A DNA stretch of 64,000 bases from Escherichia coli (GTDB lineage: Bacteria > Pseudomonadota > Gammaproteobacteria > Enterobacterales > Enterobacteriaceae): NCBI RefSeq assembly GCF_001677475.2, contig NZ_CP015229.1. The stretch is one strand, 5' to 3'. Each line of letters starts with the position of its first letter. Position 1 is the stretch's first letter. Shown here in pieces: positions 4,148 through 59,887 of the stretch. The notes under the pieces are model-generated. The model was not told the origin of the DNA. It did no database searches and saw nothing but the letters and a program-made list of their open reading frames with translations. The position numbers were made by a program, and so were the translations under genes.

Positions 4148-5052
<905 letters not shown>

Positions 5053-5110: not shown

Positions 5111-5143
5111 GCCTGATAAGACGCATTAAGCGTCGCATCAGGC
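5111..5143. repeat. REP/PU-like palindromic element
   Basis: gcctgataagacgcattaagcgtcgcatcaggc, imperfect palindrome of REP type in the IS-dtpD spacer. Confidence 0.55.
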
Positions 5144-5158: not shown

Positions 5159-6823
<1,665 letters not shown>

Positions 6824-11846: not shown

Positions 11847-12076
11847 CCTTCGCTCCCTCATTATTTTCTCTTTGGTGTATCGATACAGCATAAAGAAAGC
11901 TGGGCCAGGAAAAAATAACAGCAATCAAGGAAAAGGGGAAAATCAGCAATTTTCTGAAAGAGATGCCCTTTCCGGCGGCAAAGGGCATCATGGTAAATCA
12001 GTTATAGTTAATCTTAAAAAGCACCACTGTATCGAAGGGGCCAGCCTCGATGGGGGTGCCTGCAATGGACGAAAGT

Positions 12077-31844: not shown

Positions 31845-31877
31845 AACCTGCGCCTGGCGGGATGCCAGGCGCAGTTA

Positions 31878-34249: not shown

Positions 34250-35530
34250 TCAGGGCAGAGCAACGTTCGATTCATTGGGTTTTAATGCTTTACCCCGACA
34301 GCCCTCGCCGAAATGTTCGCCTTCCCACCGACTCACCATCGCAGCGCCCATTGCGTTGCTCATGACGTTTGTCGCGGAACGCCCCATATCAAGGAACGGA
34401 TCAACGCCCATCAGCAAGATCAGCCCCGCTTCCGGAATATTGAACTGGTTGAGCGTGGCGGCGATAACCACCATTGAAGCGCGTGGTACGCCAGCCATTC
34501 CTTTCGAGGTCAACATCAGGATCAACAGCATGGTGATTTGCTCACCGATGGATAAATGGATATTGCAGGCCTGGGCGATGAAAACTGTGGCGAAGGAGCA
34601 GTAGGCCATTGATCCAACGAGATTAAATGAGTAGCCAATGGGTAAGACAAAGCTGGCAATTTTGGGGGAAACGCCAAATTGCTCCAGTTTTTCAAGCGTT
34701 CCTGGAAAAGCCGCTTCAGAACTGGATGTGGTAAATGCCAGCAGGGCGGGTTCCGAAAGGGCGCGGGTCAGGCGTCTGATGCAGGGGCCGACATAAACGA
34801 TGGCCAGACCGATAAGCAGCACCCAAAGTAACAACATGGTGAAATAAAATTCACCCATAAAGATCCCGGCGCTCACCATAACTGCCAGTCCTCGTTCAGC
34901 AATCAATGCTGAAATAGCGGCGAATACGGTCAGGGGAGCGAAGAGCATGACGTAGCCAGTGAGCTTTAACATGGCATGTGCCAGCGAATCTAAGGCGTGA
35001 ACGATGGCGCTGCCTTTCTCGCCAATCGCCGTCAGGCTACAGCCGAGGAAAATTGAGAACACCACGATTTGCAAAATTTCATTGTGCGCCATGGCATCGA
35101 CAATGCTGGTGGGGAAAGCATGCGAAATAAATACTTTTAGCGTGAAGGGTTCTGACGCGACCACTCCAGTGGTTTCGGCACCGTGTGCAACAAAATTAAT
35201 TCCTGTACCTGGCATGAAGAAATTTACTGTTATTAAGCCTAAGGCAATTGACAGCAATGAGGCGCAAATAAATAAAAAGAGTGTTTTAGAAAAAATACGA
35301 CCAAGGGCTTTGGCATCGCCCATTTTAGCAATACCTACCACCAGGGTAGAGACCACTAACGGAGCGATAATCATTTTTATCAGTCGTAAGAAAATCGTCG
35401 TGAATATCGATATTTCTTGCGCATAGAGTTTTGCGGTTTCCGGTGAAGCAGTGTTATTGAGCACTACGCCGATAACCATTCCAAGTACCAGCGCCAAAAG
35501 AATCATCGTGGTTAAACTTATTTTCTTCAT
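34250..35530 (-). CDS. dicarboxylate/amino acid:cation symporter (DAACS family; GltP/DctA-like)
   Basis: Polytopic ORF with DAACS-type motifs; Met at 35530 preceded by GGAGG; substrate not inferable. Confidence 0.8.
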   Translation of the reverse strand: MKKISLTTMILLALVLGMVIGVVLNNTASPETAKLYAQEISIFTTIFLRLIKMIIAPLVVSTLVVGIAKMGDAKALGRIFSKTLFLFICASLLSIALGLITVNFFMPGTGINFVAHGAETTGVVASEPFTLKVFISHAFPTSIVDAMAHNEILQIVVFSIFLGCSLTAIGEKGSAIVHALDSLAHAMLKLTGYVMLFAPLTVFAAISALIAERGLAVMVSAGIFMGEFYFTMLLLWVLLIGLAIVYVGPCIRRLTRALSEPALLAFTTSSSEAAFPGTLEKLEQFGVSPKIASFVLPIGYSFNLVGSMAYCSFATVFIAQACNIHLSIGEQITMLLILMLTSKGMAGVPRASMVVIAATLNQFNIPEAGLILLMGVDPFLDMGRSATNVMSNAMGAAMVSRWEGEHFGEGCRGKALKPNESNVALP

Positions 35531-35575
35531 TTTTTCCTCCATCAGGTGCACGGCGATAAATCAGAATCAGGAGAA

Positions 35576-35607
35576 GTAGATGCCTGAATAGAGATTCAGG
35601 CATCTAC
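35576..35607 (-). other. intercistronic perfect hairpin (14-bp stem, 4-nt loop)
   Basis: gtagatgcctgaat-agag-attcaggcatctac between the small coupled gene and the transporter gene. Confidence 0.5.
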
Positions 35608-35690
35608 CTGCTATTACAACCTTACAAATAGCTGAAGTGTTGAACTGCAATAAGTGACGGGATGTCAGTTGGCTAAAAGTGTTCGGATTT

Positions 35691-36008
35691 TTACAAATCG
35701 AAACTCATATTTAATAAAGGTGCATGTTGCTGTGCACCATAGACATCATTGTCACCTACATTCCCGGAGATAATATCTCGTGGCATGACGATTTTTACTG
35801 CGTTAGAAGGATCAAACCAGACAATACGATGAATAAAGTCAGGTTCAACATGATATAAGCGCGCAATCAGTTCTGGGGTTAATTGCCCTGATGATTTAAC
35901 TCGCTCATAGTTTTCTTTGGTTTTAAATAAAATATCTAAAACCAGTTCGTAAGGTCCGGCATTTTTCGAACGAATGACTTGCGCCAGTGAGACAATTGAC
36001 TGTTTCAT
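35691..36008 (-). CDS. uncharacterized small protein, partner of the upstream 456-aa protein (possibly DUF4387-like; unverified)
   Basis: 105-aa ORF overlapping the upstream gene by 4 bp; no motif I can assign. Confidence 0.55.
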   Translation of the reverse strand: MKQSIVSLAQVIRSKNAGPYELVLDILFKTKENYERVKSSGQLTPELIARLYHVEPDFIHRIVWFDPSNAVKIVMPRDIISGNVGDNDVYGAQQHAPLLNMSFDL

Positions 36009-53654: not shown

Positions 53655-53737
53655 TGCATAACACACGACCAGAAGTCGCATTATTTCTGGTCGTGTCGTG
53701 CGAATCATAAGCAGTTGAGTGATCTACATCGAAATTT

Positions 53738-53818: not shown

Positions 53819-53894
53819 GGGTCGTTAGCTCAGTTGGTAGAGCAGTTGACTTTTAATCAATTGGTCGCAGGTTCGAATCCTGCACGACCCACCA
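53819..53894 (+). tRNA. lysT: tRNA-Lys (anticodon UUU)
   Basis: 76-nt sequence GGGTCGTTAGCTCAGTTGGTAGAGCAGTTGACTTTTAATCAATTGG...CACGACCCACCA. Confidence 0.97.
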
Positions 53895-54029
53895 ATCGCT
53901 AAGGTGGAAGCGGTAGTAAAACGTGAAGGATAACGTTGCGTCAGCAACGGCCCGAAGGGCGAGACGAAGTCGAGTCATCCTGCACGACCCACCACTAACA
54001 TAGTTAGTTGTAGTATCCAGCGTAGTATC

Positions 54030-54105
54030 GGGTGATTAGCTCAGCTGGGAGAGCACCTCCCTTACAAGGAGGGGGTCGGCGGTTCGATCCCGTCATCACC
54101 CACCA
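54030..54105 (+). tRNA. valT: tRNA-Val (anticodon UAC)
   Basis: 76-nt sequence GGGTGATTAGCTCAGCTGGGAGAGCACCTCCCTTACAAGGAGG...CACCCACCA. Confidence 0.97.
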
Positions 54106-54107
54106 CC

Positions 54108-54183
54108 GGGTCGTTAGCTCAGTTGGTAGAGCAGTTGACTTTTAATCAATTGGTCGCAGGTTCGAATCCTGCACGACCCACCA
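54108..54183 (+). tRNA. lysW: tRNA-Lys (anticodon UUU)
   Basis: identical Lys tRNA sequence, 2 nt after valT. Confidence 0.97.
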
Positions 54184-54234
54184 CTAATTACGGTGGGTTC
54201 GGTGGAAGTAGTTTGTAGTATCCAGCGCAGTATC

Positions 54235-54310
54235 GGGTGATTAGCTCAGCTGGGAGAGCACCTCCCTTACAAGGAGGGGGTCGGCGGTTCGATCCCGTCA
54301 TCACCCACCA
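54235..54310 (+). tRNA. valZ: tRNA-Val (anticodon UAC)
   Basis: identical Val tRNA sequence. Confidence 0.97.
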
Positions 54311-54313
54311 CTC

Positions 54314-54389
54314 GGGTCGTTAGCTCAGTTGGTAGAGCAGTTGACTTTTAATCAATTGGTCGCAGGTTCGAATCCTGCACGACCCACCA
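54314..54389 (+). tRNA. lysY: tRNA-Lys (anticodon UUU)
   Basis: identical Lys tRNA sequence. Confidence 0.97.
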
Positions 54390-54535
54390 ATTTTAACATC
54401 AAACTCAGATGTTAAGCGTGAAGGATAACGTTGCGCCAGCAACGGCCCGTAGGGCGAGCGAAGCGAGTCATCCTGCACGACACACCAATTTTAAAGATTG
54501 GTTCCGAGTAGAAATCTTTCAGGTAACACCCGTAT

Positions 54536-54611
54536 GGGTCGTTAGCTCAGTTGGTAGAGCAGTTGACTTTTAATCAATTGGTCGCAGGTTCGAATCCTGC
54601 ACGACCCACCA
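54536..54611 (+). tRNA. lysZ: tRNA-Lys (anticodon UUU)
   Basis: identical Lys tRNA sequence. Confidence 0.97.
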
Positions 54612-54644
54612 TCCTGAATGATTAAAGCAGCATAATCCCGCAAG

Positions 54645-54720
54645 GGGTCGTTAGCTCAGTTGGTAGAGCAGTTGACTTTTAATCAATTGGTCGCAGGTTC
54701 GAATCCTGCACGACCCACCA
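54645..54720 (+). tRNA. lysQ: tRNA-Lys (anticodon UUU)
   Basis: identical Lys tRNA sequence. Confidence 0.97.
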
Positions 54721-54724
54721 ATGT

Positions 54725-54751
54725 AAAAAAGCGCCCTAAAGGCGCTTTTTT
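54725..54751 (+). terminator. intrinsic terminator after lysQ
   Basis: aaaaaagcgccctaaaggcgctttttt hairpin with flanking A/T runs. Confidence 0.8.
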
Positions 54752-54880
54752 GCTATCTGAGATATTCAAAGATTCGAACCTGCAGCAGGTTCGAGTTGAG
54801 CGCAGCGAAACAACGGAGCCGCTCGCGGCGACGGCCCGAAGGGCGAGCGAAGCGAGTCATCCTGCACGACCCACCAATGC

Positions 54881-54907
54881 AAAAAAGCGCCCTAAAGGCG
54901 CTTTTTT
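54881..54907 (+). terminator. second copy of the same terminator (tandem duplication)
   Basis: Identical hairpin aaaaaagcgccctaaaggcgctttttt preceded by a tRNA 3'-end-like fragment. Confidence 0.7.
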
Positions 54908-55063
54908 GCTATTCAGGCATCTCTCAATTTCAATTCTTGACCCTGATGACATACTCCGCGCTTGCTGCGTAAACAACTCTACGTCGGAGGAATAAGACGC
55001 AAAGTGTGGCATTCGGCATCTCATACGTAATTCGAGTGACTTTTCCCCACCATTCGACTATCT

Positions 55064-59848: not shown

Positions 59849-59887
59849 AAAAAAGCCGACTCACTTGCAGTCGGCTTTCTCATTTTT
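59849..59887. terminator. bidirectional intrinsic terminator between convergent aroG and gpmA
   Basis: aaaaaagccgactcacttgcagtcggctttctcattttt: 7-bp stem flanked by A-run and T-run. Confidence 0.75.

Follow-up and report, generated by a model that had tools for sequence, protein, structure and literature searches.

A conserved sense-strand stem-loop predicted between the enzyme and transporter genes of the methylaspartate operon in Escherichia coli and other Enterobacteriaceae

The methylaspartate island and its long spacer

The window analyzed in this study is a stretch of 64,000 nucleotides from an Escherichia coli genome (RefSeq assembly GCF_001677475.2, contig NZ_CP015229.1), and all positions refer to it unless a locus identifier is given. 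It contains the methylaspartate (glutamate mutase) island, which in E. coli 042 is located between sucABCD and cydAB and is annotated, on one strand, with glmS, glmL, methylaspartate mutase E, methylaspartate ammonia-lyase, an AtuA-family gene, DUF4387, a DAACS symporter, a class I fumarate hydratase and cobO; a divergent LysR-family gene flanks the island after cobO. The 3.5 kb around the hairpin described below matches approximately 1120 of 5426 complete E. coli genomes at 98.9% identity. The methylaspartate glutamate-fermentation cluster, whose FumD is a mesaconase, was described by Kronen & Berg (2015; PMC4682846). According to that paper, which contains no regulatory data, pathway activity was undetectable in cultured O157:H7 (PMC4682846), and literature searches on the locus tags ECs0757-0761 and on DUF4387 found no transcript or regulatory data.

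All island genes in the window lie on the minus strand, and the upstream enzyme genes overlap or are 3 nt apart, while the interval between DUF4387 and DAACS is the sole long untranslated spacer of the operon. The features of this boundary, in the direction of transcription, are as follows.

35691-36008, minus strand: DUF4387 gene, the last of the tightly packed enzyme block glmS-glmL-glmE-methylaspartate ammonia-lyase-AtuA-DUF4387
35608-35690, minus strand: untranslated spacer of 83 nt separating the hairpin from the stop codon of DUF4387 (from alignments)
35572-35612, minus strand: predicted extension of the helix to 18 pairs, with a G·U pair among them and a single bulge, AGCAGGUAG...CUACUUCU (from local folding)
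35576-35607, minus strand: core hairpin, a perfect 14-bp stem with a 4-nt loop (from sequence reading, a hairpin scan and folding)
35531-35575, minus strand: spacer of 45 nt that separates the hairpin from the start of DAACS, with a pyrimidine-rich, G-poor tail UUCUCCUGAUUCUGAUUUAUCG that has no U-run
34250-35530, minus strand: DAACS (GltP-like) transporter gene, ATG at 35530, heading the block DAACS-fumD-cobO

The DAACS gene likely starts at the conserved ATG at 35530, which is preceded by a GGAGG Shine-Dalgarno sequence at 35536-35540. This ATG is the RefSeq start of the orthologue (a CDS of 1281 nt) and, together with its Shine-Dalgarno sequence, is conserved across genera at 50 loci. Two in-frame candidates further upstream, GTG at 35551 and ATG at 35542, have no Shine-Dalgarno sequence, and because of them gap sizes based on open reading frames are misleading here. 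An earlier reading of the window by a model that saw only the letters and their open reading frames (the sequence-only reading) had given a gap of 139 bp on the assumption of the GTG at 35551; measured from the conserved ATG, the spacer is 160 nt (83 nt, the hairpin and 45 nt). The same reading had correctly placed the hairpin between the enzyme block and the DAACS gene, since it falls within the untranslated DUF4387-DAACS spacer. At the other end of the island, a perfect 11-bp G+C-rich hairpin (CTGCGCCTGGCGGGATGCCAGGCGCAG, 31848-31874) lies between the convergent cobO and LysR-family genes and probably marks the end of the operon.

Sequence and predicted folding of the hairpin

The plus-strand letters at 35576-35607 are GTAGATGCCTGAAT-AGAG-ATTCAGGCATCTAC, which matches exactly the perfect 14-bp hairpin claimed at this place by the sequence-only reading; the sense RNA of the core hairpin reads GUAGAUGCCUGAAU-CUCU-AUUCAGGCAUCUAC. 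Six of the 14 pairs are G-C, and the base of the stem is A/U-rich. In our own scan (loops of 3-10 nt) the hairpin ranked first by perfect-stem length in the 64-kb window, and it is beyond shuffled expectation, as the longest perfect stems in 30 dinucleotide-preserving shuffles were 8-12 bp compared to the 14 bp observed. The folding calculation that had been proposed as a check indicates a stable structure, with a predicted free energy of -20.9 kcal/mol for the 32-nt core alone and -23.8 kcal/mol for the extended sense-strand helix (35572-35612), which is also present in the minimum-energy folds. A 156-nt spacer sequence folded better than all of its 200 shuffles (z = -3.47; 0/200 as good), while the DAACS-fumD spacer is unstructured (z = +1.65), leaving the DUF4387-DAACS interval as the only structured spacer of the operon.

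Several other potential RNA structures were found in the window. The same scan identified perfect hairpins of 10-12 bp at 6730-6763, 53663-53696, 68-94, 59852-59878 and 11962-11989. Two copies of a bidirectional terminator-like hairpin of the form A6GCGCC...GGCGCT6 (54725-54751 and 54879-54909) end a cluster of seven tRNA genes with RtT repeats (Rfam matches at 53819-54876), and beside one such hairpin, at 54911-54924, there is a match with two mismatches to the arm of the spacer hairpin (AGAGATGCCTGAAT), which is probably due to chance. In addition, the region at 52754-52892 matches the CpoB/ybgF intercistronic RNA thermometer over its full length (RF02782, 142 bits).

Conservation across Enterobacteriaceae

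For comparison, 80 loci were taken from species-representative genomes via alignment of DUF4387 proteins. With the exception of two Escherichia lineages, DUF4387 is next to DAACS in every Enterobacterales locus (L002-L056). The largest body of comparisons came from a set of loci termed class A (Citrobacter, Klebsiella, Enterobacter, Salmonella arizonae and diarizonae, Buttiauxella, Lelliottia, Pluralibacter and Raoultella), in which the spacer is 160-170 nt long. At the position of the E. coli hairpin, the class-A spacers contain a stem-loop of 15-17 bp with a very different sequence (e.g., GGCGUGCGUCUGAGC...GCUCAGGCGCACGCC) and a predicted free energy of -21 to -38 kcal/mol. When 32 spacers (from E. 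coli, Citrobacter, Klebsiella, Enterobacter, Salmonella, Buttiauxella, Lelliottia and others) were analyzed with RNAalifold, a helix equivalent to this stem, P3, was predicted. Across these 32 spacers, 94% of the cells of the helix are paired, and 11 of its 13 pairs have changed on both sides; none of 500 shuffles reached the observed values, and sliding the partner by 1-3 columns reduced pairing to 30-43%. The apical CCUGA/UCAGG core of the stem is conserved.

The balance of G·U and A·C cells identifies the strand on which the structure forms. G·U cells outnumber A·C cells by 46 to 11 in the hairpin helix, and by 59 to 3 and 26 to 0, respectively, in two further helices of the spacer (P1 and P2, see below). 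Since G·U is so far above A·C, it is the sense-strand RNA of the operon that folds, and on the same asymmetry a structure in an antisense-strand RNA or a DNA cruciform was rejected. The compensatory changes and the excess of G·U over A·C thus bear out the earlier proposal of an RNA-level element on the minus (sense) strand.

A covariance model (R1) was built from 30 class-A sequences and no Escherichia sequences, and identified the following feature as its sole meaningful match in the window.

35566-35631, minus strand: predicted orthologue of the covarying stem-loop P3 with its flanks (covariance model R1, 26.3 bits, E = 2.8e-4)

The other match, at 31848-31874, was weak (E = 6.5). The model also recovered the E. 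albertii site and the site of another Escherichia species. These sequence comparisons make the E. coli hairpin orthologous to a stem-loop whose pairing at this boundary appears to have been maintained by selection across Enterobacteriaceae, and the conservation that had been named as a check is present at the level of structure, which is kept across genera, and not of sequence. We therefore regard it as very probable that the hairpin is a selected sense-strand RNA structure and not a terminator. A strong hairpin (-12 to -38 kcal/mol) is found in the DUF4387-DAACS spacer of every Enterobacterales lineage examined, and an expression boundary at this location therefore appears to be general. The form of the hairpin differs in Yersinia, Morganella, Hafnia, Budvicia and Pseudescherichia, where the strongest one is found 10-40 nt beyond the stop codon, with short U-runs after it.

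Outside E. coli, the stem is part of a larger arrangement. The class-A spacer contains a motif of ~165 nt (L006-L037, e.g., L037:4319-4492, equivalent to window positions 35531-35690) composed of the P1 hairpin upstream of P3, a linker, P3, a tail and the candidate helix P2. Six of the nine pairs of P1 are compensated; the linker is a near-invariant stretch of 24 nt, AUUCAUGCGGUUGGUCAYAACAGG; and the tail is conserved as ACCCUACA. P2 is a candidate long-range helix (GGUUGG/CCARCC) that would enclose P3, in which one position is U-A, U·G or, in Pseudescherichia, C-G; the corresponding pairing in the Pseudescherichia group is GCUGG/CCAGC, and the changes within class A are one-sided only. Conservation of the spacer is higher than that of the third codon positions of DUF4387 (majority fraction 0.846 vs 0.763; invariant columns 29% vs 13%). 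Because P1 covaries near the start of the spacer, that region is evidently transcribed; sense-strand scans of the E. coli and Citrobacter spacers called no sigma-70-like promoter, and these two observations together speak against an internal sigma-70 promoter. A leader peptide or small ORF beginning at the ATG of the conserved linker was likewise rejected, as the loop indels are not multiples of three. Searches of the E. coli and Citrobacter spacers against Rfam gave only chance-level matches (E > 1), and nothing in the island reached an Rfam gathering threshold.

Two representatives have longer spacers, with 115-200 extra nt in one Citrobacter amalonaticus (L013:4319-4606) and one Klebsiella oxytoca (L024:4319-4688); the K. 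oxytoca insertion lies upstream of an intact motif (75 bits), while the C. amalonaticus motif is degraded (35 bits). The metagenome matches listed for a conserved 16-mer (GCGGTTGGTCAYAACA) were mostly due to chance, with both DUF4387 and DAACS present in 6 of at least 120 loci; these six were added as orthologues for the model search. A 7.3-kb contig labelled as a Collinsella sp. MAG (L002, JAIJJM010000101.1) is 98.5% identical to the window and contains the E. coli hairpin; it is almost certainly DNA of E. coli that was binned there by mistake.

Variation within Escherichia

E. coli and E. albertii retain P3, in a lengthened form, and have lost P1, P2, the linker and the tail; the 83 nt upstream of the E. 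coli hairpin (35608-35690) align with P1 and the conserved linker as found in other Enterobacteriaceae, both of which are degenerate in E. coli. The E. albertii hairpin (GUGGAUGCCUGA...UCAGGCAUCCAC) has a compensatory change from A-U to G-C and a loop of 8 nt, and E. fergusonii has a 12-bp hairpin (CCUGACGUUAAG...CUUAACGUCAGG) located 8 nt past the stop codon. Within E. coli there is little variation, and 1057 of 1124 records show at least 99% identity over a region of 221 nt. Among the variants inspected, the loop is changed from CUCU to UUUU or CUUU and one U-A pair is changed to U·G; one strain has an uncompensated A·C mismatch near the base of the stem, which counts against the explanation favored below.

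In E. marmotae, E. whittamii and a related lineage, the DAACS gene has been lost, and ~285 nt of spacer separate DUF4387 from fumD (L004, L005, L087 and L088; about 4319-4600 and 2319-2602). These lineages retain a 13-bp hairpin ~30 nt past DUF4387, whose arms can be aligned to the E. coli arms at 9 of 11 positions, with a matched 2-nt insertion in both arms and two pairs changed from G-C to A-U. Since the hairpin is kept without DAACS, it appears to be tied to the end of the enzyme block.

In E. coli strain 100416 (L082:3249-4000), the element has been knocked out naturally, in that IS1 and an adjacent deletion have removed DUF4387 and the 5' arm of the hairpin, such that the end of IS1 abuts CTGAATCTCT within the hairpin.

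Potential function at the operon boundary

We propose, with moderate confidence, that the hairpin marks an intercistronic boundary of differential decay or processing, acting as a barrier to 3' exonucleases, as a protective 5' hairpin, or as both. The enzyme and transporter blocks are presumably co-transcribed across the spacer, and the stem-loop would act post-transcriptionally. In this scheme the stem-loop would fold in the sense RNA of the polycistronic methylaspartate-pathway transcript, at the boundary between enzymes and transporter, and endonucleolytic cleavage would occur within the single-stranded, pyrimidine- and A/U-rich, G-poor part of the spacer. The hairpin would then block 3'-to-5' exonucleases such as PNPase and RNase II and stabilize the upstream enzyme mRNA, as in malE-malF; alternatively or additionally, it may shield the 5' end of the downstream segment, in the manner of papBA. 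With either variant, the two halves of one transcript would be present at different steady-state levels. Because the hairpin is kept in the lineages that have no transporter gene, the form protecting the upstream segment is favored. It is plausible that the hairpin sets the ratio of enzyme to transporter, as the sequence-only reading suggested, with the qualification that the lineages without DAACS also keep it.

Dar & Sorek (2018, PMC5927463) showed that at least 12% of the operons of E. coli are reshaped by protective structures located where two segments meet, and that conservation of such structures in Salmonella and Enterobacter is frequent. The spacer hairpin resembles the protective 3' stem-loops of malE-malF (REP hairpins), Rhodobacter puf and the Dar & Sorek set (PMC5927463) in being a stable stem-loop without terminator features at the boundary of operon segments, with a structure that is conserved in related genera. 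As in other differentially decaying operons, the products of the upstream genes, which are soluble proteins, would be expected to be required in larger amounts than the downstream membrane transporter. However, the hairpin is single-copy and not a REP, in contrast to those of malE-malF, and it is located in a spacer, whereas most of the Dar & Sorek examples lie inside the downstream ORF. The similarity to RNase E processing of papBA consists of an intercistronic hairpin with single-stranded A/U- and pyrimidine-rich flanks, which are possible RNase E targets, and of a downstream gene, here DAACS, with its own strong Shine-Dalgarno sequence (GGAGG). Unlike in papBA, the hairpin persists where the immediately downstream gene has been lost.

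A simple exonuclease barrier needs no sequence conservation, and therefore the conserved CCUGA/UCAGG core of the stem, as well as the linker and ACCCUACA tail found outside E. coli, count against a purely passive barrier. These conserved elements hint at a function more specific than that.

Alternative explanations

There are several potential alternatives to a decay or processing boundary. The hairpin may be the surviving core (P3) of a larger cis-regulatory leader for the transporter gene, made up of P1, P2, P3 and conserved unpaired nucleotides and responsive to a ligand, a protein or a small RNA. The class-A spacers are consistent with this, as they combine two covarying hairpins (6/9 and 11/13 pairs compensated in P1 and P3, respectively), the candidate enclosing helix P2, a near-invariant linker, a conserved tail and conservation above that of the third codon positions of the flanking gene, and no Rfam family matches them. 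In addition, the start of the spacer contains ARN-type repeats (AACAAUAACAAC), which we take to resemble Hfq distal-face sites. The similarity to riboswitch-type leaders thus extends to covarying helices and highly conserved unpaired nucleotides upstream of a transporter gene in Enterobacteriaceae other than E. coli, but there is no Rfam match and no evident expression platform, and the additional parts are lost in E. coli. Both E. coli and E. albertii keep P3 without P1, P2, the linker or the ACCCUACA tail, the hairpin is present in lineages without DAACS, the changes in P2 are one-sided within class A, no covarying alternative fold sequestering the Shine-Dalgarno sequence was found, and the data point to no ligand or binding protein. 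On balance, a leader RNA is a credible but unlikely explanation of the hairpin. We are similarly doubtful of the related proposal that the class-A arrangement is a previously undescribed multi-helix motif acting as a specific cis-regulator of the transporter, and not as a passive decay barrier, which in E. coli has been reduced to a bare stem. In E. coli itself, sequestration of the Shine-Dalgarno sequence by the UUCUCC tail would involve 6 pairs on paper, but was rejected, as this pairing is neither conserved nor robustly predicted.

A second possibility is that the hairpin is a leaky intrinsic terminator (an attenuator) that halts a fraction of RNA polymerases before the transporter gene. 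Rho-independent terminators and attenuators are likewise stable hairpins that lie in untranslated RNA, on the transcribed strand, and the sense-strand tail of the E. coli hairpin (UUCUCCUGAUUC) includes a stretch, UUCUCCUG, with 4 U in 8 nt, which is richer in U than the tails of other genera. Moreover, the same spacer of Yersinia alsatica contains a canonical terminator-like hairpin (10 pairs followed by T6), indicating that termination at this boundary may occur in relatives. However, that hairpin aligns with P1 and not with the E. coli stem (P3). The E. coli hairpin lacks the U-tract of an intrinsic terminator (at least 5 U in the 8 nt directly 3' of the stem), a terminator scan of the spacer did not call it, and there is no T-run beside it on the plus strand; a scan of the Citrobacter spacer likewise found no terminator-like site. 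Because neither strand has a U-run after the hairpin, it is not a canonical intrinsic terminator. The absence of a clean U-run on the minus strand, pointed out by the sequence-only reading, is confirmed by the tail and by the lack of a call, and its view that this is not a full terminator holds for the orthologues of other genera as well, where no U-tract is found either. The E. coli tail would also give an RNA:DNA hybrid containing G and C, and the stem differs from Rho-independent terminators in its A/U-rich base (6 of 14 pairs G-C) and its position inside an operon. In class A, the tail following the stem (ACCCUACAC) has a single U, and for this reason the conserved function of the homologous stem cannot be intrinsic termination. 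Partial termination at the hairpin is therefore decidedly unlikely, and a boundary of decay or processing remains the reading that we favor.

The hairpin might alternatively be a cleavage site for RNase III that splits the polycistronic mRNA. Known RNase III sites occur at intercistronic locations such as this one, and the helix is long and regular, with 14 perfect pairs, 18 with the extension and bulge, and 15-17 bp in other genera. However, E. coli RNase III substrates typically span about two helical turns (roughly 20 bp or more), of which 14-18 bp fall short, and nothing in the data is specific for this enzyme; we consider cleavage by RNase III highly unlikely.

With respect to mobile repeats, the hairpin shares with REP/BIME elements its nature as an extragenic palindrome of ~32 nt with GTAG/CTAC ends, and REPs can stabilize upstream mRNA. 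It differs from them in occurring once per genome, in being a perfect palindrome with GTAG inside the stem, in not matching the REP consensus, and in being orthologous and syntenic across genera, with covariation. It was found at one place per genome in 1123 of 5426 genomes, all of which carry the island, and in a single copy in the window, where the REP-arm pattern matched at 5130, 47537 and 59806 and not at the hairpin. REP identity, which the GTAG/CTAC ends might suggest, was thus rejected on copy number and on mismatch to the REP consensus (GCCKGATGCGRCGY...). More broadly, a DNA-level element (an operator palindrome bound by a dimeric regulator, e.g., the neighboring LysR-type protein, a mobile repeat of the REP type or a hotspot of recombination) would agree with the perfect palindrome, its REP-like GTAG...CTAC ends, the LysR-family gene flanking the island and the IS1-associated deletion that ends inside the hairpin in one strain, but is extremely unlikely given the strand-specific excess of G·U over A·C, which points to RNA, the single copy confined to island-bearing genomes, the lack of a REP consensus match despite REP-like matches elsewhere in the window, and arms that differ almost wholly between genera around loops of 4-17 nt while pairing is kept, a pattern of variation that is incompatible with fixed operator half-sites.

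Conclusions

Roughly one in five complete E. coli genomes carries the methylaspartate island, O157:H7 among them, as do many opportunistic Enterobacteriaceae. A selected RNA structure in the sole long spacer of its operon would provide a testable handle on the uncoupling of enzyme and transporter expression, and the class-A motif is an unannotated candidate structured RNA that is absent from Rfam. If the hairpin is only a decay barrier, it adds one more case of a well-known principle; most likely, it is an unannotated example of a familiar kind of operon control.
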